Shown here piece after piece: positions 1 through 21,543 of a stretch of 23,484 nt of DNA; position 1 is the first letter of the stretch; each line of letters opens with the position of its first letter. Made by a program: the position numbers and the translations under genes. The notes beneath the pieces were generated by a model, which made no database searches, was not told the origin of the DNA, and saw nothing but the letters and a program-made list of their open reading frames with translations. The stretch is from Candidatus Diapherotrites archaeon CG10_big_fil_rev_8_21_14_0_10_31_34 (GTDB lineage: Archaea; Iainarchaeota; Iainarchaeia; Iainarchaeales; 1-14-0-10-31-34): assembly GCA_002763225.1 (NCBI GenBank), contig PFAI01000051.1, forward strand, positions 1 to 23,484. Direction: 5' to 3'.

Positions 1-2141
1 TTTTTTGCTAAAGTGGGGCCAATTAAAGGCAAGGATTCAACTACAAACTGCTGTAATTCAGGCTGAGATAAACCTTTTCTTCCAATTCTTAAACGAATTT
101 CTTTCCCTTTACCTAACTGCTCTCTTTTTGCAATCAAATAAAGATAAGAAACTGTTTCTTGAACTGAATCAGAGAAAAGAATTGGAACCTGATAATCCAA
201 CAAAATTGAACTTAATGCTCCTTTAATTGCATTTTCATGAATGTTTCTTAAAGTAAATAAATCTTTTTTGTTTCCTTCAACAATCATTAAAGGTTTTTTG
301 CAGTTAGCACTTAAATCAATTAATTGAGAAAATAATCTGCCATCTAACATTGAAGTCAAAAAATCTTCTGTTGTTTTTCTTTCAATTATTACTTCATCAC
401 TTAAAACATAATCCCCTATTTCTAGTTGTTTGACTTTAACTGAAACATTATCAAACTTTGACAATTCTCTTACTGCGTTTGAAGCCTGTTCTCTTGAATC
501 AACAAAAATCAAAATAAAATCTTTGTTTGCTGAAAAAGAATTCAATGTTGTCTGTGACTCCATTTTTCTTGCATTCAAACTTGTTTCATCTAATCCCTTT
601 GAATTTAATGCTTTCATTTTATCTAAAGTGGATTTCATTTTTCTTTCTTTTGCTACACTGCTCCAGTAAAAAGCTTCATCTCTTGTTCCTTTAGCCATTA
701 AAATAATTGTTTTTCCTTTTGAAAGTCTTCCAGTTCTGCCTCTTCTTTGAATTGTTCTGATTTCAGAGGGAACTGGCTCAAAAAAAACAACTAAATCCAC
801 TTCAGGAATATCCAATCCTTCTTCTGCAACCGCAGTAGCTATAAGCACATTATATTTTCCTGTTTTCAAATCTTGTATTACCTGCGATTGTTCTTTTTGA
901 GTCATTCCTTTAACTTTTTCTTTTGCTGCCTGACCAACAAACTTTTTTGGTTTAATTCCTTCTACTTCAGTTAATTGTTTTTCTAAAAAAGAAACTGAAT
1001 CACGGTAATGATTAAATACTAAAACCTTGCTTTCAGGGTTTTCCTTAAATTGCTTTTTTAATAAATTAATTAATTCAAACAGTTTTGGATGCTCTGTTTT
1101 TTTTTCAAACAGTTTTTTTGTTAAAATAACTGCTTTTGAAACTGCTTCATGAGATAAAAGAAATTTTGCTGCTTTAGTAGTAGAATCTTTTTCTAATCTG
1201 GAAAAATAATCATTCAAAGAATTAATTCCCTGGGTTTCAAGCAGTAATTCTGCATGAGAAACTTTTAATAAGGCCGCCAGACGGGAAATTGCAGTGAATA
1301 AAGCAGAATTTTTTTCCGGAGAAGAAGCAATTCTTTTTCTTATTGCAGACTGCATTTGAAGCAACTGTGTTTTGTTTACATACTGAACTGAAGTGCTTGA
1401 TGCAAAACCAAATTTTTTCAGAAAAATAAGCTGTTCTTTCATGAATTCCCTTAACAAAACTTTAATTTCCAGAAATTCAGCCGGCAAATCAACTTTAATC
1501 CATTCAGTGGTAATTTCATTCACATAAGGTTTTACATCAGAATCTTTCTCTGATTTAATTTCAATGTTTTTAATAAACAAGTTTCTGCACACATCATCAA
1601 TTCTTTCTTTTTTTCCTCCAGGAGAAGCAGTCAAAGCAAGAATTAATCCTGAAGGATTTTGTTTCATGTAATTTTGTGCAAGAAAAACATAACTGTAATC
1701 TCCTACTGCTTTATGCGCTTCATCAAACACAATTAAAGAGACTTCTTTAAAAGAAATTTTTCCCTGCAGTAAATCGTTTTCAATTGACTGCGGGGTAGCA
1801 GAAATAATCTTGGAGTTCTGCCATAAAGGAATTCTTTTAGCAGAAGAAATTGAGCCAGTCATCAAAGTAATTGATTCTTCCGGAAGATTTAAAAATTTCT
1901 GAAAAGATTTCTGGTGCTGTACAGCCAAAGGCTTTGTCGGAGACAACACTAAAACTTTTTTTTCCGGCTGTGACTGCAAAAGAAAAGCCGAAACCATTGA
2001 AGCAACAACTGTTTTTCCTAAAGCAGTTGGCGCAACAACCAAAGAATTTCCTTTCTCTAAAACCCTTGCAGTTAACACTTCCTGATAAATCCTTGATTCA
2101 ATTGAATTTTCCTTGATTAAAGGGTGTAAAACAAAAGTCAT
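1..2141 (-). CDS. hef: Hef/FANCM-like SF2 DEAH helicase fused to ERCC4 (XPF) nuclease and HhH domain; 3' end runs off the left edge
   Basis: Not in the ORF track. Segments translated by hand from the ATG at 2141: MTFVLHPLIKENSIESRIYQ..., motif I APTALGKT, motif II VFDEAH, motif VI QRRGRTG, ERCC4 motif GDY...IERKT, and HhH-like SLPLIGPTLAK at the window edge. Confidence 0.95.
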   Translation of the reverse strand, partial: MTFVLHPLIKENSIESRIYQEVLTARVLEKGNSLVVAPTALGKTVVASMVSAFLLQSQPEKKVLVLSPTKPLAVQHQKSFQKFLNLPEESITLMTGSISSAKRIPLWQNSKIISATPQSIENDLLQGKISFKEVSLIVFDEAHKAVGDYSYVFLAQNYMKQNPSGLILALTASPGGKKERIDDVCRNLFIKNIEIKSEKDSDVKPYVNEITTEWIKVDLPAEFLEIKVLLREFMKEQLIFLKKFGFASSTSVQYVNKTQLLQMQSAIRKRIASSPEKNSALFTAISRLAALLKVSHAELLLETQGINSLNDYFSRLEKDSTTKAAKFLLSHEAVSKAVILTKKLFEKKTEHPKLFELINLLKKQFKENPESKVLVFNHYRDSVSFLEKQLTEVEGIKPKKFVGQAAKEKVKGMTQKEQSQVIQDLKTGKYNVLIATAVAEEGLDIPEVDLVVFFEPVPSEIRTIQRRGRTGRLSKGKTIILMAKGTRDEAFYWSSVAKERKMKSTLDKMKALNSKGLDETSLNARKMESQTTLNSFSANKDFILIFVDSREQASNAVRELSKFDNVSVKVKQLEIGDYVLSDEVIIERKTTEDFLTSMLDGRLFSQLIDLSANCKKPLMIVEGNKKDLFTLRNIHENAIKGALSSILLDYQVPILFSDSVQETVSYLYLIAKREQLGKGKEIRLRIGRKGLSQPELQQFVVESLPLIGPTLAK

Positions 2142-2238
2142 ACAAAAAAAGTAAGTGAAATCAAATAAAAATCAATGGGGAAGGAGACTGCCAGTGAAAA
2201 GAAAAAAATTATTAATAACAAAAGCATTGATAGTATGG

Positions 2239-3372
2239 ATGAAAAAAATATTATTGTGTTTAAGCCTGTTGTTTTTAATTAGCTTTGCTTATTCATTTTG
2301 CGAGGATTCAGACGGAGATAATTATGGAATAAAAGAATTAGACTGCGAGTTTTCTGCTTTAGACTGCGATGACTTTAATCCAAATATCAATCCGGGAAAA
2401 ACTGAAGTTTGCAGTAATGGAATAGACGAAGACTGTAATGGAAAAGATTTAAGCTGCATGCAGTGTGCTGAAGGAGAAATTTTTTTCAGGTGTTCCTGCC
2501 AGGGAAAAATATATGAAAAAGGGACAGGTTATTGCTGCAACAATGTGTTTAATGAAACAAAATGCGAGCCAGGCTGCACTGGAACTGTAGCAGACCGGCT
2601 TAACTGCATTACAGAACAAGGCTGCCCCGGAGAAACTATGTGCAATATATGGCTAGCTCCACCACATCAATTATTTGAATGCCATGATGTATTTCCAGAT
2701 GATAACTGCCCTTGCATTGAAAAATGGTCTTGCGAAAACTGGAGTTCATGCATTAATGGTAAAACCACAAGAAAATGCACTGATAAAAAAAATTGCAGCA
2801 CAATAAAAATTAAGCCAAAAACTACATCCACTTGCACTACAGAAACAAAAAAAATCAGTGTTAAGCTGTTAAAAAATACTATAAAAGAAAACGAGTTAAT
2901 TACTTTAATTGCCTCTTACAACAATAATCCTTTGGTTTCAGCTAAAGTTGAATATTCAGGTAAAAGCATTTTAACAGATTTTTCCGGTAAAGCAGTTTTA
3001 ACTGCAGTTTTTGGCCAAAACAAAATTAAAGTAAGCAAGCAGGGATTTGATTCAGAAGAATTAACAATAAATGTAATAAAAGAAATTGATGCAGGCTGTG
3101 GAAACAATTACTGCGATGAAAAAGAAAATGAATTTAATTGCCCGATAGACTGCAAAAAAACCAGTGAAACAGGAGACCAAAACAAGGATGACCCTAAACC
3201 AATTTCTGAAGAAAAACAAAAATGTGGAAACAAAGTATGCGATAAAGGAGAAGGCATAACTAATTGTTTTACTGATTGTTTTAATCCACTGGCGCCGGAA
3301 AGCCTGGTGTTTTTCGGGGTAGTTTTTCTTGTCCTTATATTGTTTATAATCACTTTATTGAAGATAAAATAA
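2239..3372 (+). CDS. Cysteine-rich, C-terminally membrane-anchored surface protein with MopE-like putative metal-binding motif and CGNxxC repeats
   Basis: Likely start is the ATG at 2239, giving a signal-peptide-like MKKILLCLSLLFLISFAYS. Contains DCDDFNPNINPGKTEVCSNGIDEDCNG, WSCENWSSC...RKCTD, two CGNxxCD-x-E-xxxNC-x-DC repeats and a hydrophobic C-terminal helix followed by KIK. Confidence 0.8.
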   Translation: MKKILLCLSLLFLISFAYSFCEDSDGDNYGIKELDCEFSALDCDDFNPNINPGKTEVCSNGIDEDCNGKDLSCMQCAEGEIFFRCSCQGKIYEKGTGYCCNNVFNETKCEPGCTGTVADRLNCITEQGCPGETMCNIWLAPPHQLFECHDVFPDDNCPCIEKWSCENWSSCINGKTTRKCTDKKNCSTIKIKPKTTSTCTTETKKISVKLLKNTIKENELITLIASYNNNPLVSAKVEYSGKSILTDFSGKAVLTAVFGQNKIKVSKQGFDSEELTINVIKEIDAGCGNNYCDEKENEFNCPIDCKKTSETGDQNKDDPKPISEEKQKCGNKVCDKGEGITNCFTDCFNPLAPESLVFFGVVFLVLILFIITLLKIK

Positions 3373-4630: not shown

Positions 4631-4682
4631 AAGAAAAAAAGGTTTGAATTTGTATTTAAACCTTGTGTAGTAAAAATTTTTG

Positions 4683-5459
4683 ATGACCCCAAAAGAAAAA
4701 TACAAAATTTTAGTGAAAAAAACAAAAGAGTTTTTTGAAAGGCAAAAATTCAATAAAGCAGTAATAGGGTTAAGCGGGGGCCTTGATTCATCTTTAACAG
4801 CAAAAATTACTGTTGACGCAATAGGAAAAGAAAACGTTTTAGGTTTAATAATGCCTGAAAAAACCAATTCACCTGAAAGCTTGGAGTATGCAAAAGAATT
4901 AGCAGAACAGCTTGGAATAAAAGCAGTTAAAATAGATATAAATGATTTTTTCACGCCTTTTTATAAATTACTTCCATGGGACCAAAACAATGCTTCAAAA
5001 ACAAATTTAAAGCCAAGAATAAGAATGACAGTGCTTTATAATTATGCAAACAGACATAATGCAATTGTAGTCGGAACATCAAACAAAACAGAAATAATTT
5101 TAGGTTATTTTACCAAGCACGGAGACAATGCAACAGATTTTATTCCAATAGGAAATTTATTTAAAACAGAATTATACGAAATAGCAAAAGAAATAGGGAT
5201 ACCAAAAAAAATAATTCAAAGAAAACCTTCAGCTGAACTGGAAGAAAACCAAACAGACGAAAAAGATTTAGGTTTAAGCTATAAAGAAATAGATGAAATA
5301 CTGGCTGAAAGGGAAAAACAATCTTTTAAGAAAAATTTGAGCAAAACAGAAATAGAAAAAGAATTAACTGAAAAGTTTGGAGAAAAAGCTAAAAGCATTC
5401 TGAAAAGAATTGAAGAAAACAGGCACAAAATTAAGCCAATAGAAAAAATTGAATTTTGA
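4683..5459 (+). CDS. nadE: NH3-dependent NAD+ synthetase
   Basis: SGGLDS PP-loop, NLKPRIRM, GTSNKTE, GYFTKHGD, KPSAEL, QTDE. No glutaminase domain. Confidence 0.95.
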   Translation: MTPKEKYKILVKKTKEFFERQKFNKAVIGLSGGLDSSLTAKITVDAIGKENVLGLIMPEKTNSPESLEYAKELAEQLGIKAVKIDINDFFTPFYKLLPWDQNNASKTNLKPRIRMTVLYNYANRHNAIVVGTSNKTEIILGYFTKHGDNATDFIPIGNLFKTELYEIAKEIGIPKKIIQRKPSAELEENQTDEKDLGLSYKEIDEILAEREKQSFKKNLSKTEIEKELTEKFGEKAKSILKRIEENRHKIKPIEKIEF

Positions 5460-5506
5460 TTAAAACCAAAAAAAAGAAAAAAACAGGAATTTAATTTTGA
5501 TTAAAA

Positions 5507-6370
5507 ATGATTTCAAAAAAAATGAAAAAAAAATTAGTTGAGTTTGTCAGGGAAGACATTGCAGGAAAAGACATTACCACAGAATTAATCACAGAAAAAA
5601 AATGCAATGCAATAATTAAATTAAAAGAAAAAGCAGTTGTATCCGGATTAGAAGAAGCAAAGTTTTTGTTTGAATTTTTCAGGGTTAAAACAAAAGTTTT
5701 AGCTAAAAACGGAAAAAAATACAATAAAGGAAAAACTCTGATAAAGTTAAAAGGAAGCAATAAACAAATTCTTATAGCTGAAAGAACTGCATTAAATGTT
5801 TTAAGCAGAATGAGTGGAATTGCAACTTCAGCAAAAAAAGCCCAAAAAATCGCAGGAAAAAACTGTAAAATAATGCTGACAAGAAAAACCTGTGCAGGAT
5901 TAAATGAATTAGACAAAAAAGCAGGAATAGAAGCAGGAATCCTGCCTCACAGAAAAAACCTGAATTCAGCTTTCCTAATAAAAGAAAACCATTTAAAATT
6001 CGGTTCAATTCAAGAACTCATTCAAAAAGCAAAAAAAATGAATAAAAAAAACAAAGAAAAAACAGGAAAAGGAAAGCAAAAAAACAAATTAACTGAAAAA
6101 AAATTAATTGAAGTTGAAATACAAAACTTTTTTGAATTAAATCAAGCAATTAAAGCTAAACCAGATGTAATAATGCTTGACAATTTTTCTTTAAAGAATG
6201 CAGGAAAAGCATTAAAGGAAATAAGAAAAACAAAAATCAAGATAGAGGTTTCAGGAAACATTAATTTTGAAAATTTAAGGGAATATTCTTCTTTGAAACC
6301 GGATTTTATTTCAATGGGTTTATTAACTCATTCAGTTAAAGGAATAAATTTAAGTTTGCTTGTTAGTTAA
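5507..6370 (+). CDS. nadC: Nicotinate-nucleotide diphosphorylase (carboxylating), quinolinate phosphoribosyltransferase
   Basis: ED..G.DITT, ERTALN.L.RMSGIAT, TRKT, HR, LIKENH, EVE, MLDN, SGNI, SMG.LTHS. Confidence 0.93.
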   Translation: MISKKMKKKLVEFVREDIAGKDITTELITEKKCNAIIKLKEKAVVSGLEEAKFLFEFFRVKTKVLAKNGKKYNKGKTLIKLKGSNKQILIAERTALNVLSRMSGIATSAKKAQKIAGKNCKIMLTRKTCAGLNELDKKAGIEAGILPHRKNLNSAFLIKENHLKFGSIQELIQKAKKMNKKNKEKTGKGKQKNKLTEKKLIEVEIQNFFELNQAIKAKPDVIMLDNFSLKNAGKALKEIRKTKIKIEVSGNINFENLREYSSLKPDFISMGLLTHSVKGINLSLLVS

Positions 6371-6375
6371 TTATT

Positions 6376-6963
6376 GTGAGTAAAATGAAAATTGGCTTGT
6401 TTGGAGGGTCATTTGACCCAATTCATTTAGGGCATTTAGTTGCAGCACAACAAGTGTTAGACGAAAAACTATGCGAAAAAATATGGTTTCTGCCTTGCTA
6501 TCAAAATCCATTAAAAAAAAAGTCAACTGAAACAAAACACAGAAAAAAAATGCTTGAAATAGCCATAAAAAACGAAAAAGGTTTTGAATTAAATGAAACT
6601 GAATTAAAAGAAAAAAAAACTAATTACACAATTGAAACAGTAAGAAAACTGAAAAAACTGTTTTCTGAACACGAATTTTATTTTATTATTGCAGGAAAAG
6701 CACTAAAAGAATTCAATAAATGGAAAAAATACGATGAACTGGCAAAAGAAATTAAATTTATTGTTGTTTCTTTCCAGCATTCAGATAAAATCCCGAAAAA
6801 AATAGGGAAATTCAATCCAATAAAACTGAATCCGACTTTAAGCAGCAATATTTCTTCTACTTTAATCAGAAAAGGAATAAAAGAAAAAAAAGATGTATCA
6901 GTTTTTTTACCAAAAAAAGTTTTGGATTACATTAAAGAAAACAAATTATATGAATTCAAATAA
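6376..6963 (+). CDS. nadD: Nicotinate-nucleotide adenylyltransferase, bacterial NadD type
   Basis: IGLFGGSFDPIHLGH, P...NPLK, YTIET, W, ISSTLIR, V.DYI.E.KLY. Start is GTG 6376 or ATG 6385. Confidence 0.92.
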   Translation: MSKMKIGLFGGSFDPIHLGHLVAAQQVLDEKLCEKIWFLPCYQNPLKKKSTETKHRKKMLEIAIKNEKGFELNETELKEKKTNYTIETVRKLKKLFSEHEFYFIIAGKALKEFNKWKKYDELAKEIKFIVVSFQHSDKIPKKIGKFNPIKLNPTLSSNISSTLIRKGIKEKKDVSVFLPKKVLDYIKENKLYEFK

Positions 6964-7004: not shown

Positions 7005-8786
7005 TTAAAGCTTAAATCTTTTTCTTTCGTCTTTGGTTTCTTCTCTTAAATAATTAACAAATTCGTCTCTGAAATTAGAGATATCTAATACTTTGCCTGT
7101 TTCAAGGAATGCACTGATATTTTTGATAAAAACATTGCTTCCAATCACATCAGGCAAAATAACAAAATCAACTTCTTTTTCATATAACTCTAATGCATCT
7201 CTTTTAGTTTTTGCACGGGAAAAAATTGAAATCTTTGGATTAATTTGTTTTGCTTTTTCAGCTAAATACAAAGCATAAGTTATTTCAGGAATAGCAATAA
7301 CCAATAAACCGGCTTTAGCTAAATTAACTTTGCTCCAGATTTCCTGGTTTTCAATGTTCCCGCAAACAGAATTAATTCCTAAATTGATTTGATTAAAAAT
7401 TACATCAGGGTCATGGTCTACTACAACAACATCATTATGTCTTCCGATTGCTTGAGCAATGCTTGAACCCATTACTCCTGCGCCTACAATAATAATATGG
7501 TTTTGCAGTTCTTTTTCTTCAGGAAGCCTTTCCAAATCATTTAATTTGTTTACAAACCGGAATCTGTTTGAAAAAGGATGAAAAAGTCCTGAAAGTTTTG
7601 AATAAATTCCTTCACTTGAATTCATAAAATATGGAGTTACTGCCATAGTAACTGCAGTAACAATAATTGTAATGGAAAAAATATCTGAAGATAATACTCC
7701 TGAAGTAAAACCATATGCAGCTAAAATAAAAGAAAACTCTGAAATTTGTGCCAAAGAAAAACCAACTATCAAACCATTTCTTGTCCCATAACCTGCAATA
7801 ATACTGATTAAAACAAAAACAATTGGCTTAAGGATTAACACAATAAAAAGCATTATTCCTGCAATCAATAAAACAAATTCTAAAGGACTGGAAAAAATCA
7901 AAGTTAACTGAACGCCTAAAGAAACAAAAAAAACTGTAACAAAAAAATCTCTTATCCCTCTTATTTTGCCGATTAATTCAAGATTGCTTGAAAGAGCTGA
8001 AAGGCTTAAACCAGCCAAAAATGCTCCAACTGCAGGAGAAAAATCAAGCATTGAAGCAAGAAAAATAAAAACAAAACAAGTGCTTAAACCGGTTAAAAAT
8101 AATAGTTCCTGGCTTCTGGACGAATAAGAAACAATTCTGGAAAAAACAAATCTTCCAAGCAAAAAAGCAAGCAAAAGCAACAACAAACCTTTAACTATAA
8201 TTGGGACAACCGCAGTAAAAGTAAAAGATTCAAGTGAAACCAAAGGCAAAACCAATACAATCAAAAAATCCTGCATTAACAGAAAGCCAATCATTAATCT
8301 TCCATGCAAAGTATTTAGTTTATTGGAATCAGACAAATTTTTTACTACAATCATAGTTGAACTAAAAGCAAGAATTAAACCTAAATAAACTGAAACCAAA
8401 AAATCCAATCCAATAAAATTAAATAAAGCAAAAGAAATAACTGAAATCAGGAAAACCTGAATAATGCTTCCAATCAAAACAATTTTGCCGATGTTTTTTA
8501 ATTTATTTAAATCTGATTCAACTCCGACAGTAAACAACAAAAAAGCAACGCCTAACTCTGAAATCAAAAAAATATTTTCCATTCCCTGAGTTAAGCCAAG
8601 TAAATTCAATCCAATTGGACCAATAATTACTCCGGCAACAATATAAGACAAAATTAAAGGCTGTCTTAAAAGCCTTCCAATTAAAGCAGTCAAAGTTGCA
8701 AAAACAACAATTAAGCCGAGTTCTGCAACCAAACCAGAAGACTGAATAAACTCAAAATTAACTATTGAAAAAAGTTCTTCAAACAT
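7005..8786 (-). CDS. Kef-type (CPA2) cation:proton antiporter with C-terminal KTN/RCK (TrkA-N) domain
   Basis: Many TM helices with ELGVAFLLFTVG.E, SSTMIV.K, G.LL.QD, FFVSLG and LAQISEFSFIL. C-terminal IIIVGAGVMG Rossmann motif. Start taken at the ATG at 8786. Confidence 0.92.
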   Translation of the reverse strand: MFEELFSIVNFEFIQSSGLVAELGLIVVFATLTALIGRLLRQPLILSYIVAGVIIGPIGLNLLGLTQGMENIFLISELGVAFLLFTVGVESDLNKLKNIGKIVLIGSIIQVFLISVISFALFNFIGLDFLVSVYLGLILAFSSTMIVVKNLSDSNKLNTLHGRLMIGFLLMQDFLIVLVLPLVSLESFTFTAVVPIIVKGLLLLLLAFLLGRFVFSRIVSYSSRSQELLFLTGLSTCFVFIFLASMLDFSPAVGAFLAGLSLSALSSNLELIGKIRGIRDFFVTVFFVSLGVQLTLIFSSPLEFVLLIAGIMLFIVLILKPIVFVLISIIAGYGTRNGLIVGFSLAQISEFSFILAAYGFTSGVLSSDIFSITIIVTAVTMAVTPYFMNSSEGIYSKLSGLFHPFSNRFRFVNKLNDLERLPEEKELQNHIIIVGAGVMGSSIAQAIGRHNDVVVVDHDPDVIFNQINLGINSVCGNIENQEIWSKVNLAKAGLLVIAIPEITYALYLAEKAKQINPKISIFSRAKTKRDALELYEKEVDFVILPDVIGSNVFIKNISAFLETGKVLDISNFRDEFVNYLREETKDERKRFKL

Positions 8787-8838
8787 AATAAATAAAAAAA
8801 CGCAAAACAAGTATATAAACCTTTTTTAAAAAAAAGAA

Positions 8839-12448: not shown

Positions 12449-12874
12449 ATGGTTAAGAAAGTAATGGCTTTTGGAACATTTGATGGAATACATCCAGGGC
12501 ATATTTATTATTTAGAACAAGCCAAAAAATTCGGAGAATTAACTGTGGTCATTGCAAGGGATGAAACTGTAAAAAAAGTGAAAGGAAGAAAAACTTTATT
12601 TAAAGAAAAAGAAAGAAAAAAAATGATTGAAAGCCTGAAAGCAGTGGATAAAACTGTTTTTGGAGCAAAAAAAGAAAGCAAATTTGAAATCCTCAAAAAA
12701 TTTAAGCCAGAAATAATTGTTTTAGGCTATGACCAAAAACCATCAAAAAAAGAACTGGAAAAAGAACTAAAAAAAATGAATTTAAAAGCTGAAATAAAAA
12801 GAGTTAAAGCATTAAATTCAAAAAGATTTAAATCATCAAAATTAAAGAAAAAAATAATTGAATTGATAAGTTGA
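12449..12874 (+). CDS. ribL: Archaeal FAD synthase (FMN adenylyltransferase), cytidylyltransferase family
   Basis: VMAFGTFDGIHPGH, VVIARD, E.ER...ESLK.VD, P.IIVLGYDQ, KSSK. Confidence 0.8.
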   Translation: MVKKVMAFGTFDGIHPGHIYYLEQAKKFGELTVVIARDETVKKVKGRKTLFKEKERKKMIESLKAVDKTVFGAKKESKFEILKKFKPEIIVLGYDQKPSKKELEKELKKMNLKAEIKRVKALNSKRFKSSKLKKKIIELIS

Positions 12875-12924: not shown

Positions 12925-12978
12925 TTATTGGTTTGATTTTATTATTTGATTTTATTATTTGATTTTATTGGTTTGATT
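12925..12978. repeat. Four tandem copies of a 13-14 bp unit
   Basis: ttattggtttgatt / ttattatttgatt / ttattatttgatt / ttattggtttgatt. The rightmost copy is the 3' end and stop of the zinc-ribbon gene. Confidence 0.85.
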
Positions 12979-13220
12979 TCTCTTTCAATTGTTTTCTGTA
13001 TTCAATTAATTTTTCCGGAGTGGCTTCCATTACAAAACCATAAAAACCGCAGTCAACACAACGCATCTGAGGAGACAAAGCAACCGCATCTTTTCCCATT
13101 CCATAAATTTTTGGTTTCACATTAGTTGAACCGCAGTCAGGACAAAAAGTTAAATACTGTTTTTTTTTCCTGTGAAGCTTTTTTTACTGCTCTGTCAAAC
13201 AAATCCAGATTTTCTTCCAC
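12965..13220 (-). CDS. Small zinc-ribbon protein (CPDCG...CVDCG), frame interrupted at an A9 run
   Basis: Not in the ORF track. GTG at 13220 (AAGGT upstream) reads MEENLDLFDRAVKKASQEKK. The +1 frame continues QYLTFCPDCGSTNVKPKIYGMGKDAVALSPQMRCVDCGFYGFVMEATPEKLIEYRKQLKEKSNQ-stop. Span is 256 nt (3n+1). Confidence 0.75.
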
Positions 13221-13268: not shown

Positions 13269-14099
13269 TCAATTTTTTTCCTTTAATTTTTTTTCTAAAT
13301 ACTTGACTATTTCTAAAGCAACATTAATTTTAGTGGATTCCTCAAAAGCACGGAACTGAGGAGAACGATTGGTTTCCAAAACAAACCATTTTTTATTGAA
13401 TAAAGCTAAATCAACTCCGGAAATTTCCAAATGAGATGCCTTACAGGCTTTAACTGCAATGTCAGAAATTTGTTTAGTTAACTTGAATTCAACTGCTTTT
13501 GCTTCCTGAGCAATGTTTTTAATCCAGTGCTGGGATTCTTTTTCAAAGCCTCCTATTACTTTTCCTCCGACAACCATTACTCTAATTTCTTTTTCAAATT
13601 GAATGAATTCCTGAACCAAAAAAAGTTCTTTGTTGGTTGTATTTAAAGAAGACAAAAAACCATGGATTTCAGAAAAAGCTATTCTTCTGATTCCTTCTCC
13701 TCTTTTTCCTTCCAAAGGCTTTAAAACAAGAAAATCCGAATCAGAAAAAGGAAGAGAATAAACTGTTTTTTCATTTAACAAAAAAGTTTTCGGAATATTC
13801 AGTCCTGCTTTAAGAAAAGCAGCGTAATTAGTGAATTTGTTTCTTCCAGCCATAAAAACAAGTTTTTCATCAACAATTTTTGTTCCGGCAGAAAAAAAAC
13901 TTAACGCTAAAGCTCTTCCTTGTAATCCTTCATTTTTTAAAACCCTGAATAAAACTACATCAAATTTTTTTTGTGAGGGAAGCTCTGCCTGAAAGTTTTC
14001 AGGAGAAATAACTGTCACAAAATGCTTTCTTTTTTCTGCTTCTGATTTAATTCTTTCAACTTCAAATTGTTGTTCTGTTGAAACAATCCCTAATTTCAT
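13269..14099 (-). CDS. RimK/LysX-family ATP-grasp ligase (catalytic motifs intact)
   Basis: NK, IPKT, LVLKPLEGKRGEGI, VQEFI, EIRVMVVGG, WIKNIAQ, GVDL, VLETNRSPQF. Confidence 0.9.
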   Translation of the reverse strand: MKLGIVSTEQQFEVERIKSEAEKRKHFVTVISPENFQAELPSQKKFDVVLFRVLKNEGLQGRALALSFFSAGTKIVDEKLVFMAGRNKFTNYAAFLKAGLNIPKTFLLNEKTVYSLPFSDSDFLVLKPLEGKRGEGIRRIAFSEIHGFLSSLNTTNKELFLVQEFIQFEKEIRVMVVGGKVIGGFEKESQHWIKNIAQEAKAVEFKLTKQISDIAVKACKASHLEISGVDLALFNKKWFVLETNRSPQFRAFEESTKINVALEIVKYLEKKLKEKN

Positions 14100-14100
14100 T

Positions 14101-14988
14101 TCAAAACCTGTTTTTTGCCTTAATTTCTTTTACATGATTGTAAATGTATTTCATTAAAATATTAGCAAACTTGTTTTTAAAAAAATCCGGCATTATTCCT
14201 GGTGCAAAATTCACTTCAATTAACTTGTATTTTCCGTCTACTTCCATAAAATCCACTGCACAAACTCCTAAACCCAAAATTGCCGCAGCCTTAACTGCAT
14301 CTTCTTTCATTGCAGAACTTAATTCAATTAACTCGGCTTTTCCGCCCTGAGAAACATTAGTTCTCCATTCCCCTTCTTTTGGAATTCTTTTAATCCCAAA
14401 AACTTCTTCTCCGAAAACCATGCAGCGAATATCATAATTAGCTGATTTAACAAACTCTTGAGTTGAAATAAATTCCTTGAATAATTTTAATGTATCCAAC
14501 ACAGGCCTGAATTCACTTTCAGAATTAGCAATCATTACTCCTCTTCCGCCAAAGCCCGACAAAAGCTTAATTACAACAGGGTAACCAATTTTATGGCTCA
14601 TATCAATTGCAGTCTGCGGAGAAACAGCTAAAGAAGAAATTGGAACAGGAATATTTTCTCTTGACAAAACTTTTACAGTAAAATACTTGTGGTTAGTTAT
14701 CTGAAAGGCTTCTGGAGTCAAAGGAGTAAAAACATCTGACTGATTTAAAATATCTAACACAATTTCTCCAAACATTAAGTCCTTAGAAAAAAATCTTGCA
14801 TAACAGGCATCAAAAGAAGTTAAATCAGTGCCTCTGAACAATAACCTGTTTTTTCCATTAACACATTCAACTTTGATTTTTTGCAGAGGAGCATATAAAA
14901 CAGTATCAAAAAATTTATGAGCTTCCTCTAAAATCATTTGCTTTACTTCCTGCCTTTCATTGCTTCCTCCAATATACAAAAATTTCAT
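14101..14988 (-). CDS. RimK-family ATP-grasp (alpha-L-glutamate ligase-like) protein, catalytic motifs intact
   Basis: HK, IPVP, YPVVIKLLSGFGGRGV, QEFV, DIRCMV, WRTNVSQGG, AVD, LIEVNFAPG. ATG 14988 is preceded by SD-like GTGAT (alternative start GTG 14997). Confidence 0.92.
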   Translation of the reverse strand: MKFLYIGGSNERQEVKQMILEEAHKFFDTVLYAPLQKIKVECVNGKNRLLFRGTDLTSFDACYARFFSKDLMFGEIVLDILNQSDVFTPLTPEAFQITNHKYFTVKVLSRENIPVPISSLAVSPQTAIDMSHKIGYPVVIKLLSGFGGRGVMIANSESEFRPVLDTLKLFKEFISTQEFVKSANYDIRCMVFGEEVFGIKRIPKEGEWRTNVSQGGKAELIELSSAMKEDAVKAAAILGLGVCAVDFMEVDGKYKLIEVNFAPGIMPDFFKNKFANILMKYIYNHVKEIKAKNRF

Positions 14989-14989
14989 T

Positions 14990-15850
14990 TCAATCACTTT
15001 TCTTTATTTTACTTAAATAAAATTCTGCTGTAGCTTCAAACAAATTCTTTCCAAGAATTTCCTGAAAAAACATAAAATCAACTGAAGATTTAACACTCAC
15101 AATGTTTCCCTGAATTGATTTAATCACAGCAATATCCAATCCAATAGTATTTTTTGCTTTAATTATGTCTGATTGTTCTTTTTCACTTAAAGTAATACCA
15201 GATCCTTTTTTAACATACTCAAATTTTTCTTTATTCCAAGGTCTTCTGACAGTAAAAACCTGTTCCCCTATAATTGCACTAACATCCAAATCTTTTTCAA
15301 AAAAGTCCTGCAATAAAAGAGTATCAAAATCAGATTTAATACTTTTAACAATTGAAAGCAAAGACTTTTCGGATTCAACCAAGACATCCTGAATTTTTTT
15401 GTATCCGTCAAATACCTGAAGAATCAAAGGAAAAGAAAATTCTTTTAAAGAAGCATTAATAAAAGAACTTGAACCAAAAATATTTGTATCAGGTGTTTTA
15501 ATTTTATGAGCATTTAAAGTAGTAATCTGAAAAGCCTTGCTTGAAAGAATAGAAAAAGAATCAGGTTTTACCTGACAATAAATTCCTTTCTGAGAAAATT
15601 CATCCAATAAAGGTTCAACAAACTGAGTAAACTGAACTCCTACATCCAAAAAACATGAATCAAATTCATCTAATTTCAGGCCACCAAAAATCAAAGTAGT
15701 TTGTTTTCCTTCAGTTAACAAACCTAATTCACTTATATCAATTGCTTCAACTGAAATGTTTTTTTTGTTAAATGCTTCTTTTAACTGAGCAATATACTGA
15801 TTGCCTTTTTCATGAATAAATAATGTTTTCATAATAACTTCCTTAATCAT
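14990..15850 (-). CDS. Degenerate RimK-like ATP-grasp protein (probable pseudo-enzyme)
   Basis: RimK length and layout (SK..Q...L...IKTPDT, FPLIL, LLQDF, D.SAIIG, GLDIAV), but the catalytic K, glycine loop, DIR Arg, VD and EVN motifs are substituted. Start is 15850 or 15832. Confidence 0.75.
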   Translation of the reverse strand: MIKEVIMKTLFIHEKGNQYIAQLKEAFNKKNISVEAIDISELGLLTEGKQTTLIFGGLKLDEFDSCFLDVGVQFTQFVEPLLDEFSQKGIYCQVKPDSFSILSSKAFQITTLNAHKIKTPDTNIFGSSSFINASLKEFSFPLILQVFDGYKKIQDVLVESEKSLLSIVKSIKSDFDTLLLQDFFEKDLDVSAIIGEQVFTVRRPWNKEKFEYVKKGSGITLSEKEQSDIIKAKNTIGLDIAVIKSIQGNIVSVKSSVDFMFFQEILGKNLFEATAEFYLSKIKKSD

Positions 15851-17405
15851 TTACTGCTTCAGGATCAATTTTCTTTTTTTCTGCTTTATTTTTTTGATCA
15901 GATTTTAATTGTTTTTCCGGCGCCCAGACTTTTTTTATTTTTGTTTCAGGATCCTTGGAAATTTCATTAAAAACAAATTCTGAAAGCAAATCAGTTACAA
16001 CAGATTTTCTTCTAATAAGTTTATGCACATATCTTTCAAAAGACTTTGAAAGGTTTTTATAAGAAGCAACATTAGCATAAATTAAGCCTTCCTGTAAACG
16101 CCAGAAAGCAGGAGTTCCTTTTTTTGCAAAAATCAAGTAACCTCTTTTTTTGTCTGTCTCGCTCATTGCTTCATCCAGTAAACGATAATCAACCATATAA
16201 ACTCCTGCAGTCTGAGGAGAAGGATCCATAATAATTATTTCGTCTCCTTCAACTCCAACGCATAAAACAAAATGCCCTGACCTTGATTTTTTTGAAGGAA
16301 ACAAAACAGGTTTTTTATACCACAATAAAAGCATTGCACTGTCAGCAACCCATGACTTAACTTCATCTTTTAAATTATAAATCTGGTTGTATCTCACTAA
16401 CTGTCCTTTAAGCAGGCCATTAGAAAGTTTTTCAACTGAATTAATTAAATCCAATGGTTTTGTTCCGCCAGGAGAAGAAGTTTTAGCTAATTTTCCAATT
16501 TCCTGCTGAGAAAAATTATAACCAAAAAAAGACATCATCATTGAAGCAGAAGCAGGTCCGCAAAAATAATTCAGCTGAGGAATAAATTTGGTTCTGATTG
16601 CTTCAAGTTTAGAGATATCACTTCTCGCTCGCTTAATATAAAACTCTTTTTTCAAAAATTCTTTGTTTGGAATAACCATGTTATATCCTGAAGGCAGTCT
16701 AAGCATTACTCCATGAATGTCTACTCCAATTATTTCTCCTGTTTCTTCTCCAATTTTAATCTGCTGTCCTGGCTTAACTAAATTTCTTTCAATATAAATG
16801 CTTGAAAAAAAGTTTTCAAAAATTTCTTTGAATCCAAAGAAAATAAATGCAAGAACCAAAATGATTACTGCAGTAACCAGAGTGTTAAAGAAACTGCTGA
16901 ACAAACCAATATCAATTCCAACAGAAGAAAAAGAAATCATTAAAACAATCAATAAAAGAAAAATTTTTACTACAAAAAAAAACGAAGAAATAATCGGCTT
17001 TGAAATGCCAAACTCTTCTAAATAAGAATCTGAACCAAACCTTGAAAACAAAAAGCTTACTGCATCAACAATTAAAGTTACCAGAATATATCCTAAAACA
17101 AAAACCAAAAAGAAAATTACTACTGAAGGAAGCAAAGCCATTACTTTTGAAACCAAAACAGACGCAACAGAAATTTTTAACACACTTAAAGCAATAATTA
17201 AAGAAACAACAAAAACAAATAATTCAATTGACTTTGCAACAGAATCAATTGTAAGATAACTTGTTTTTTGTTTTCTTAAAACAAACTCCAAAATTTTTCC
17301 AACAATTTTGGCTAAAATTAATCCTAACAAAATCACTGCAATTGCCTGAGCAACATTGCTGAATAAAACTTCTTCCAGCAAAATATTTCCTAAAGTTTCA
17401 GCCAT
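15843..17405 (-). CDS. MscS-like mechanosensitive channel (TM helices plus beta-domain) fused to a C-terminal C39/papain-like cysteine peptidase
   Basis: N-terminal ~200 aa of TM helices. FGFKEIFENFFSSIYI and KPGQQIKIGEETGEI..VD.....L....G..MVIPN match the MscS pore helix and beta-domain. Then PQLNYFCGPASASM (Cys282), SQ.EI, GT, GHFVLCVG (His378) and IMDP (Asp394). Confidence 0.88.
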   Translation of the reverse strand: MAETLGNILLEEVLFSNVAQAIAVILLGLILAKIVGKILEFVLRKQKTSYLTIDSVAKSIELFVFVVSLIIALSVLKISVASVLVSKVMALLPSVVIFFLVFVLGYILVTLIVDAVSFLFSRFGSDSYLEEFGISKPIISSFFFVVKIFLLLIVLMISFSSVGIDIGLFSSFFNTLVTAVIILVLAFIFFGFKEIFENFFSSIYIERNLVKPGQQIKIGEETGEIIGVDIHGVMLRLPSGYNMVIPNKEFLKKEFYIKRARSDISKLEAIRTKFIPQLNYFCGPASASMMMSFFGYNFSQQEIGKLAKTSSPGGTKPLDLINSVEKLSNGLLKGQLVRYNQIYNLKDEVKSWVADSAMLLLWYKKPVLFPSKKSRSGHFVLCVGVEGDEIIIMDPSPQTAGVYMVDYRLLDEAMSETDKKRGYLIFAKKGTPAFWRLQEGLIYANVASYKNLSKSFERYVHKLIRRKSVVTDLLSEFVFNEISKDPETKIKKVWAPEKQLKSDQKNKAEKKKIDPEAVND

Positions 17406-17557
17406 TCAAATCCCTTTCAGTATAATAAAAGACATTTAAAGAGTTTAAATAGATTGCCTTAAAAAGAAGGTTTTTATAAGGGAAAAAACACTAAAAAAAA
17501 TTAAAAAAAGTAATTCAAGAAAAAAGAAATAAAAACATAACAGGGATTTAATTGTAT

Positions 17558-18664
17558 ATGGAGAAAACAAGGAAAAACCGCTTTTTGAAAAACGATTCCG
17601 GCAGCCAAAAAAACAAAGAAAAAAAAACTTTTATAAAAAAGTTTATTAAAAAAAAAGGAAAGAAAAAACTTTTTTTTGAAAGCCAGGGAAACAAAAACTT
17701 TGATTTTAATAAAACAAGAGAATACGGGGAAAAAATTTTAACTGAAAATCTTGGATTAAACAAAAAAGAAAAAGTTCTTGTAATATGCGACGAAACAACT
17801 TTTTTGATTGGAAAAGCATTTCATTTTGCCGGAAAAAAACTTGCAAAAAAATCCAAACTGATTGAAATCAAATCACTTCCATTCAATGGAATGGAACCAA
17901 ATGAAATAATAGCAAAAGAAATGCTTAAATTTGAAGTAATTTTAATGCCGGTAAAAAGTTCTTTAAGCCATACAAAAACAAGAATGCATGCATCAAAACA
18001 GGGAGCAAGAATTGCTTCAATGCCAAGATTAAATTATGAAATGATTGAAAGAGATTTGAAAGCAGACTACAATAAAATAAAAGAATTAAGCCTGAAAGTA
18101 AAAGAACTTTTTTCTAAAGCAGATTTAGCTGAAATTAAAACAGAATTAGGAACAGATATTAAAGTTCCATTAAAAGGAATGAAAGCAGGAGGAAGCAAAG
18201 CAGGATTTTATTTAAAGCCAGGGCAATGGGGGAATATTCCTCAAGGAGAAATATATATTGTTCCAGAAGAAGGAAAAGCAGAAGGAAAATTTGTTGTTGA
18301 TGCATCAATGGGAACAATAGGAAAAATAATTAACCCGATTGAAATAACTGTAAAAAAAGGATTTGTTTCAAAAATAGAAGGAAAAGAAGAAGCAGAAAAA
18401 CTAAGAAAATTGATTAAACCTTTGGGCAAGAATGCAAGAAATATTGCAGAGTTTGCAATTGGAACAAATGATACAGCAAAAATAATTGGAGTGGTATTAG
18501 AAGATGAAAAAGTTTTGGGAACCGCTCATTTAGCAATAGGAAACAACACTTCAATGCAAGGCGGAACCACTTACTCTGAAATTCATTTGGATGGAGTTTT
18601 TACTAAACCAACAATCTGGCTAGACGGCAAACTCTTTATGGAAAAAGGAAAAATATTAATATAG
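17558..18664 (+). CDS. M29-family (thermophilic metalloprotease-like) aminopeptidase with Lys-rich N-terminal extension
   Basis: EP, S.SHT, ASMP, GNIPQGEIYIVP, G..VVDAS, NIAEFAIGTN, EDEKVLGTAHLAIGNN, SEIHLD. Confidence 0.9.
   Translation: MEKTRKNRFLKNDSGSQKNKEKKTFIKKFIKKKGKKKLFFESQGNKNFDFNKTREYGEKILTENLGLNKKEKVLVICDETTFLIGKAFHFAGKKLAKKSKLIEIKSLPFNGMEPNEIIAKEMLKFEVILMPVKSSLSHTKTRMHASKQGARIASMPRLNYEMIERDLKADYNKIKELSLKVKELFSKADLAEIKTELGTDIKVPLKGMKAGGSKAGFYLKPGQWGNIPQGEIYIVPEEGKAEGKFVVDASMGTIGKIINPIEITVKKGFVSKIEGKEEAEKLRKLIKPLGKNARNIAEFAIGTNDTAKIIGVVLEDEKVLGTAHLAIGNNTSMQGGTTYSEIHLDGVFTKPTIWLDGKLFMEKGKILI

Positions 18665-18692: not shown

Positions 18693-21543
<2,851 letters not shown>

Follow-up and report, generated by a model that had tools for sequence, protein, structure and literature searches.

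The DNA analysed here (the window, 23,484 nucleotides) spans positions 1 to 23,484 of contig PFAI01000051.1, assembly GCA_002763225.1, from Candidatus Diapherotrites archaeon CG10_big_fil_rev_8_21_14_0_10_31_34, a tiny groundwater archaeon whose genome is 81% complete. It carries a gene for a protein of 520 amino acids (aa) which, judged by its sequence, is a genuine and conserved fusion of an MscS-type membrane core with a C39-like cysteine peptidase whose catalytic residues are intact. In the window the fusion gene heads a row of four genes on one strand, and this operon, in which it stands ahead of RimK-type ATP-grasp genes, was overlooked by the preliminary description of the window and is the main functional clue. 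We propose, at a probability of about 0.5, that the fusion protein acts as a peptidase or transpeptidase anchored in the membrane and works together with RimK-type ligases, the two assembling and taking apart a peptide or tail of glutamate type at a pore sensitive to tension.

The gene is a single uninterrupted open reading frame (ORF) starting with ATG on the minus strand, as had been claimed, and the domain-architecture check which the preliminary description had proposed, made here with Pfam, found MS_channel and Peptidase_C39 families both in this one ORF (Table 1). The N-terminal half matched MS_channel_1st_1 at residues 83-126 (E 1e-4, 22.6 bits against a cut-off of 22) and MS_channel_2nd (PF00924) at residues 195-255 (E 4.1e-5, 24.1 bits against 20.2), and the C-terminal half matched Peptidase_C39_2 (PF13529) at residues 274-395 (E 1e-10, 42.7 bits against 24) and Peptidase_C39 (E 8.6e-7, 29.3 bits against 22). 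The AlphaFold model, with a mean predicted local distance difference test score (pLDDT) of 77.6, showed five long transmembrane (TM) helices, beta strands at 215-258, a helix at 261-271, a papain fold at 282-428 (pLDDT ~85-95) and helices at 432-489 (pLDDT ~60). The VIPN said to end the MscS beta-domain was found as V244-I245-P246-N247, and the active-site pattern Q277-x4-C282-G283, H378 and D394-P395 was present in full with a His-Asp spacing of 16. The peptidase pattern had been placed "directly" after VIPN; the order stands but the adjacency does not, as ~25 residues including one helix intervene.

A family profile was built from 24 members, and MscS residue numbers were taken from the chain numbering in the profile alignment. 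The profile matched solved MscS at E 1.5e-10, with query residues 12-83 on TM1-TM2 and 175-254 on TM3 plus the beta-domain. Foldseek also matched MscS, MscK and YnaI at E 6e-6 to 1e-4. Family-wide counts refer to 81 members, namely the window protein and 80 loci that were kept out of 82 relatives found by a genome search using one prokaryote genome per species. N198 and the A-G motif aligned with N117/G121 of MscS, and N198 was kept in 77 of the 81 members. Mean lysine plus arginine counts over the 81 members were 0.2 for the N-terminus, 5.0 for loop 1-2, 0.7 for loop 2-3, 2.0 for loop 3-4, 0.1 for loop 4-5 and 2.5 after TM5. These counts follow the positive-inside rule, suggesting an N-out/C-in topology with the peptidase predicted to be cytoplasmic. 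In comparison with E. coli MscS (PF00924), the TM3b motif, the beta-domain and the first two TM helices align and the predicted orientation is the same, but the fusion protein has five TM helices where MscS has three, its TM3a-like helix is bulky where that of MscS is Gly/Ala-rich, and the peptidase stands where MscS has its alpha/beta domain. MS_channel_3rd (PF21082), the Pfam family of that domain, gave no match in the fusion protein at E<=0.1, yet of the two canonical MscS paralogues that the genome also encodes, one has it (the one on contig C31), which argues that the peptidase occupies the alpha/beta-domain slot. The earlier claim of a C39-type peptidase in place of this domain therefore holds as a statement of domain order. 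Since two canonical paralogues are present, the fusion copy need not be a general safety valve.

The Q277/C282/H378/D394 tetrad was kept in 80 of the 81 members, which span 27-82% identity. The sole degenerate member, L069 (7001-8311), belongs to a Nanohalalkaliarchaeum bin; it shows G/Q/S/D in place of the tetrad and retains the AG1-AG2 operon described below; P0045, one of 48 relatives from a protein search, has E at both the Q and the H positions. These two proteins would suit a peptidase fold that serves only as a structural, non-catalytic replacement of the vestibule, but with the tetrad invariant in 80 of the 81 members we regard that explanation as highly improbable. The single-sequence match in the PDB was ComA (E 2.4e-4), with Q277/C282 falling on Q11/C17 and H378/D394 on H96/D112, which we take to be the catalytic residues of ComA.

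Structures were compared by Foldseek and VIA-align over residues 259/268-431. The highest score was obtained with PeiR (Z 19.9, root-mean-square deviation (rmsd) 2.2, 149 residues aligned), followed by the ComA peptidase domain (Z 17.3, rmsd 1.9-2.0, 134-136 residues), the primitive phytochelatin synthase Alr0975 (Z 16.9, rmsd 3.2, 164 residues), PCAT1 (Z 16.6, rmsd 2.3, 136 residues) and the BtrH-like transferases CcbD and CtaG (Z ~12, rmsd 3.1-4.2, 141-153 residues). With a Gln oxyanion residue, a Cys-His-Asp triad and Z values of 15-20 to PeiR, ComA, PCAT1 and Alr0975, the domain belongs to the C39-like papain-fold peptidases of clan CA. PeiR, its closest structural neighbour, differs in being named as a pseudomurein (cell-wall) endoisopeptidase, whereas the fusion domain is predicted to be cytoplasmic, and the likeness in sequence is marginal (E 0.09-0.11). 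The C39 domains of ComA and PCAT1 (PF03412) share the papain-like fold, a tetrad aligned residue for residue and the arrangement of a cytoplasmic domain tethered to a membrane conduit. They differ in that theirs lies N-terminal to an ABC exporter, while that of the fusion protein lies C-terminal to the MscS-like core, with no ABC transporter domain found in the protein by Pfam or in the model. The fusion protein also has no ATPase, a small-ORF search of low sensitivity for short peptides (see below) found no conserved GG-leader gene nearby, and its partners are RimK-type ligases.

Downstream of the fusion gene lie a degenerate RimK-like ATP-grasp gene (AG1) and two intact RimK-family ligase genes (AG2 and AG3). 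In the rimK_fam model (TIGR00768, cut-off 143.4 bits), AG2 scored 146.9 bits (7e-43) and AG3 161.4 bits (3e-47); the matches of AG1 to rimK_fam (9.8e-11) and Pfam RimK (9.2e-7) were weak. K104, K144, the Gly-rich loop, R212, N214, G218, D249 and E261-x-N263 of AG2 were invariant in 25 of 25 sequences. None of the 25 AG1 orthologues had the Gly-rich loop, the WRSN-GG motif or a complete E-x-N motif, and only W205 was invariant among them. By these motifs AG2 is live and AG1 dead, so that the two form a conserved dead/live ligase pair. A complex prediction of residues 258-520 with AG1 gave scores of 0.00 and 0.30 against a mark of 0.32, values which count neither for nor against binding.

The order of fusion gene, AG1-sized gene and AG2 on one strand was found in 45 of the 80 loci, and in two more the contig ends inside AG1. 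The operon carries one or two intact RimK-type ligases after the degenerate ATP-grasp, and the loci that bear it span Iainarchaeota, Micrarchaeota, Aenigmatarchaeota and Nanohaloarchaeota. In the source genome, as far as its 81% completeness reaches, all three RimK-domain genes sit in the fusion operon and RimB-type retropepsin (PF05618) has no match.

On this evidence, that is, the domain anatomy, the conserved tetrad, the operon with its overlapping codons in the window and its gene order in 45/80 loci, the pairing of a live AG2 with a dead AG1, the confinement of the RimK-domain genes to the operon, the recurrent GCS2-type ligase and the two canonical MscS paralogues, we favour the peptidase-ligase reading stated at the outset. 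The fusion gene would be co-transcribed with the dead AG1 and one or two live ligases (AG2, AG3), often with a GCS2-type ligase near, and the RimK-type ligases would assemble an acidic oligopeptide or peptide tail of glutamate type. The peptidase, tethered to the channel, would then cut or transfer the ligase product at the cytoplasmic mouth of the tension-sensitive pore, and the peptide or glutamate pool would thereby be tied to the osmotic or membrane state. We infer the heptamer, the pore and its gating, the chemical nature of the substrate and the physical contact with the ligases. By analogy, the system may be an archaeal, membrane-bound counterpart of RimK/RimB and RloABC, which serve as precedents for this reading, RimB as a trimmer of poly-Glu and RloABC through hypo-osmotic tolerance.

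According to PMC11957791, RimB trims the poly-Glu made by RimK and also stimulates RimK. The RimK-RimB(-RimA) systems of Pseudomonas and E. coli likewise encode a RimK-family alpha-L-glutamate-ligase-type enzyme with a dedicated, putatively counteracting peptidase. The peptidase there is a soluble retropepsin, whereas here it is a channel-fused papain-like cysteine peptidase, and here an extra dead ATP-grasp is present. To our knowledge, ribosomal protein bS6, the substrate of bacterial RimK, is absent from archaea. As for RloABC, RloB is described in PMC11957051 as a polytopic membrane protein whose papain-superfamily domain is inactive and RloC as an ATP-grasp protein, both of which act genetically with retropepsins in hypo-osmotic tolerance. 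The two systems share a polytopic membrane protein with a papain-superfamily domain, encoded with a RimK-like ATP-grasp, but the RloB domain is inactive, predicted to be periplasmic and carried on a 7TM part, while the fusion domain is intact, predicted to be cytoplasmic and carried on an MscS-like core. Neither 7TM_transglut nor Transglut_i_TM was among the Pfam matches of the fusion protein at E<=0.1.

Several observations weigh against the peptidase-ligase reading. Pore function is not assured, judging from the TM3a-like helix, which is bulky at positions where MscS has Gly/Ala packing. The fold matches single out no specificity, because PeiR, ComA, Alr0975 and PCAT1 lie within ~3 Z units. 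Furthermore, 33 of the 80 loci had no ATP-grasp gene in the fetched flanks. In a FastTree tree of the 81 fusion proteins with tails removed, a 31-row clade without an adjacent ligase was split from the other 50 rows, which comprised 48 with the operon, L021 without it and L071, whose contig ends inside the fusion gene; the 31-row clade, L021 and L071 make up the 33 loci. When five ligase-free genomes were searched, four had a RimK-type gene that was unlinked and had no AG1 neighbour (E 1e-58 to 1e-64), and no RimK-type gene was found in the fifth. As these loci keep the fusion with the ligase unlinked or not found, the peptidase-channel can work without a linked ligase.

The unlinked RimK-type frames (L084-L087, in genomes G001, G003, G004 and G005) were 364-386 aa long, ~80 aa longer than AG2, and this excess length suggests that the RimK-type proteins of the ligase-free clade may carry an extra domain.

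The ligase-free loci invite another explanation, in which the fusion protein is a protease regulated by tension or by the membrane whose targets have nothing to do with the ligases, such as a cytoplasmic or membrane protein undergoing regulated proteolysis, and the ligase genes are neighbours for another reason. The 31-row clade keeps the fusion and its intact active site with no ligase alongside, and the neighbours at 22 ligase-free loci were varied: 6 of these loci had triosephosphate isomerase upstream, and 5 had a giant FG-GAP or CARDB protein downstream. Against this explanation stand the tight operon of overlapping codons kept in 45/80 loci across four phyla and a source genome in which all RimK-family genes lie in that operon, and we judge it unlikely. 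The giant FG-GAP/CARDB proteins of the ligase-free clade are surface-type proteins of 623-1728 aa, encoded directly downstream on the same strand as the fusion gene. An FGase-family amidohydrolase gene adjoins the fusion gene in L021 (4564-5304, minus strand), and in L078 an M29 peptidase gene (5555-6706, minus strand) is divergent from it, as in the window; small-peptide hydrolases thus recur beside the fusion gene even where ligases are absent.

Coupling of a protease or transpeptidase to membrane tension, which the preliminary description had suggested, remains a live idea. In its most novel form, the protein would be a heptameric tension-gated channel with a cytoplasmic cage of seven active cysteine peptidases, in which tension or the pore state would control the cleavage of ligase-made oligo-glutamate, either free or on the protein's own tails, so that polymerisation and depolymerisation of an osmolyte and its release through the pore would be coupled with the ligase pair. 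We consider this mechano-enzymatic osmostat rather unlikely as it stands.

The C-terminal tails bear on a further variant. After the near-invariant R-x-W-x-P motif follows a K/E/D-rich tail, with a median length of 19 aa at operon loci (range 5-57, n=45) and of 3 aa at operon-free loci (range 2-8, n=32). Six tails from Nanohalo- and Aenigmatarchaeota (L023, L024, L027, L029, L030, L069) have in common an L-D/N-E-F motif, which could be a docking motif. These features would agree with a self-modification switch, in which AG2, with AG1, adds glutamates to the acidic tail of the channel and the C39 domain trims them, thereby tuning gating or conductance; PMC11957051 also reports a protein C-terminus tailed by RimK. 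However, the tree allows only two independent contrasts between tail length and operon, both concordant, so that the link is a hint only and adds little weight to the peptidase-ligase reading either. Not only E but also K, N, D, Q, R, S and L occur as the last tail residue, and several tails at operon-bearing loci are 5-9 aa long. We find such a switch very doubtful.

A GCS2/YbdK-like carboxylate-amine ligase is encoded near the module in the window and in 16 of 47 operon-bearing loci. It lies directly after AG2 in nine Nanohaloarchaeota-type loci and takes varied upstream or downstream positions in Iainarchaeota-type loci. This neighbour raises the alternative of a transferase resembling phytochelatin synthase or BtrH, in which GCS2 and an ATP-grasp ligase would make a gamma-glutamyl di- or tripeptide, as GshA and GshB do, and the papain-like domain would deglycinate or oligomerise it next to the channel through an acyl-enzyme on Cys282. 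Alr0975 was the best Foldseek match (E 7.5e-8 over 199 columns) and, when the family profile was run against the PDB, the strongest papain-like match (E 1.7e-4, with PeiR next at 0.091), in addition to its Z of 16.9 over 164 residues; the acyltransferases CcbD and CtaG matched as well, and one relative, P0087, gave a sub-threshold Phytochelatin match (9e-4). According to PDB titles and PMC10318531, Alr0975 (MEROPS C83) acts on a ligase-made gamma-glutamyl tripeptide via an acyl-enzyme. Alr0975 is soluble, though, the Phytochelatin family PF05023 had no match in the fusion protein at E<=0.1, PeiR and ComA score as well or better in Z, and the GCS2-type ligase is absent from most loci. Taken together, a transferase of this kind seems improbable.

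The preliminary description had also offered an ATP-independent analogue of a peptidase-containing transporter (PCAT), in which the C39 domain would remove a double-glycine leader, the ribosomal peptide would leave through the MscS-like pore without ATP and the ATP-grasps would be graspetide-type maturases. In fold the domain is like the peptidase domains of ComA and PCAT1 (Z 16-17, rmsd 1.9-2.3, 134-136 residues), ComA is the single-sequence PDB match, AG3 weakly matches graspetide maturase models (TIGR04187 at 3.8e-8), and graspetide ATP-grasps are most often partnered by C39-ABC transporters according to PMC8939145. Small ORFs were clustered, 2025 of them from 28 divergent loci and the window, by BLAST at E 1e-4, which has low sensitivity for short peptides. 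Within that sensitivity, no conserved free-standing small ORF was found across the 28 loci and the window, and every conserved cluster inspected fell inside the span of a large gene, in most cases on the other strand. In addition, AG2 and AG3 fit rimK_fam far better than they fit maturases, directional export would lack an energy source, and in every lineage one member of the ligase pair is dead. The PCAT analogue is thus poorly supported, the conserved partners being RimK-type ATP-grasp ligases and not precursors or transporter parts, and we think it quite unlikely. AG3 is followed closely by an ORF of 51 aa that has a single CxxC pair (12965-13120, minus strand) and belongs to no conserved cluster.

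The family is restricted to DPANN archaea. The protein search returned 48 relatives at E<=0.001 with 30-96% identity, mostly ~500 aa long (range 325-573) and mostly with the same domain pair, whose database names are only "C39 family peptidase", "mechanosensitive ion channel" or "hypothetical protein". The 80 loci were mostly titled as DPANN (Iainarchaeota/Diapherotrites, Micrarchaeota, Aenigmatarchaeota, Nanohaloarchaeota and Woesearchaeota/Nanoarchaeota), others as "archaeon" or "uncultured archaeon" and eight as Methanosarcinales or euryarchaeote; in the tree, the copies from "Methanosarcinales" bins fell inside the ligase-free clade beside loci titled Woesearchaeota or Nanoarchaeota. Residues 258-520 were also searched against 1.84 billion cluster representatives, giving 116 matches, 58 of them at E<=1e-10. 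Among these 58, the full-length ones were the same fusion (~480-550 aa, with the domain at ~250-500) and the shorter ones look like fragments; matches weaker than ~1e-7 were all small, generic proteins of the C39 or C39_2 type. In the ESM Atlas the cluster comprises 73 members, 100% archaeal.

The possibility of an assembly chimera was also checked. Contigs from 4 of 4 groundwater runs, possibly of one campaign and one possibly of the source sample, cross the domain junction (~16580-16640) with 0-1 differences. With these contigs and the 80 independent loci, three of which are on records titled complete chromosomes, the fusion is not a chimera.

Each component is known by itself, be it MscS-like cores, C39-like peptidases or RimK-type pairs of ligase and peptidase, and the fusion and the module are undescribed: no paper describing an MscS-C39 fusion or its module was found in the literature searched, which did not cover Iyer et al. 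2009. One of the searches gave only an unrelated C39 locus, in PMC6393860.

The variation known among MscS-family channels lies mainly in membrane and periplasmic domains added at the N-terminus. Replacing the vestibule domain by an enzyme would, if true, elaborate the channel in a different way, by coupling a catalytic site to a pore that senses tension. This module is among the few multi-gene sets kept across several DPANN phyla with very small genomes, and this conservation argues for an important role, be it in osmotic or glutamate homeostasis, in a protein-tail code or in symbiont physiology. The peptidase-ligase reading would carry over to archaea the principle of a ligase with its own peptidase, as in RimK/RimB and RloABC, with a peptidase of another class and in a system compact enough for structural and biochemical work (three or four genes, with a core protein of ~500 aa).

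Table 1 Coordinates of the fusion gene, its parts and its neighbours in the window, and of giant genes downstream of the fusion gene in five ligase-free loci
Feature	Position	Strand	Remarks
Fusion gene	15843..17405	-	MscS-like membrane core followed by C39-like cysteine peptidase, helical extension and charged tail; 520 aa
Five TM helices, residues 17-209	16779..17357	-	Last helix TM3a/TM3b-like; AlphaFold model and profile alignment
MscS beta-domain (PF00924), residues 195-255	16641..16823	-	Ends in VIPN; Pfam and profile
Linker helix from beta-domain to peptidase, residues 259-273	16587..16631	-	AlphaFold model
Papain-like (C39_2-type) peptidase domain, residues 274-431	16113..16586	-	Pfam, Foldseek, alignments
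Catalytic codons	Q277 16575-16577; C282 16560-16562; H378 16272-16274; D394 16224-16226	-	
Helical C-terminal extension, residues 432-496	15918..16112	-	Conserved (R436, Y443, Y449); ends in R-x-W-x-P; model pLDDT ~60
K/E/D-rich tail, residues 497-520	15846..15917	-	Variable; present in operon-bearing lineages
AG1, degenerate RimK-like ATP-grasp (predicted pseudo-ligase)	14990..15850	-	Start overlaps fusion-gene stop by 8 nucleotides
AG2, intact RimK-family ATP-grasp ligase	14101..14997	-	Start overlaps AG1 stop by 8 nucleotides
AG3, second intact RimK-family ATP-grasp ligase	13269..14099	-	1-nucleotide gap after AG2
Intergenic region	17406..17551	.	AT-rich; divergent, between fusion operon and M29/GCS2 genes; putative promoter role
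M29-family aminopeptidase	17552..18664	+	Divergent from fusion gene; loose link to module
GCS2/YbdK-like carboxylate-amine ligase	18693..20021	+	Pfam and family models
Giant FG-GAP/CARDB genes	L037:8515-13701, L044:3131-7033, L052:8478-11132, L054:5723-7594, L057:4342-7080		

Among the other genes of the window, orf141 (12449-12874) was considered as a part of the module and dropped, being a cytidylyltransferase-like housekeeping gene that is syntenic only in Iainarchaeota- and Micrarchaeota-type loci. A CPA2/KefC-like cation:proton antiporter with a TrkA-type domain (7005-8810, minus strand) is an osmotic/ion-homeostasis gene ~7 kb from the fusion gene. An NAD-synthesis cluster occupies 4680-6963 on the plus strand and consists of NAD synthase, quinolinate phosphoribosyltransferase and a cytidylyltransferase-like (NMNAT-type) gene. 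At the start of the window, a Hef-like helicase-ERCC4 nuclease gene (3-2141, minus strand) runs off the end, and beside it a 405-aa protein with a MopE-type metal-binding motif is encoded at 2155-3372 on the plus strand.

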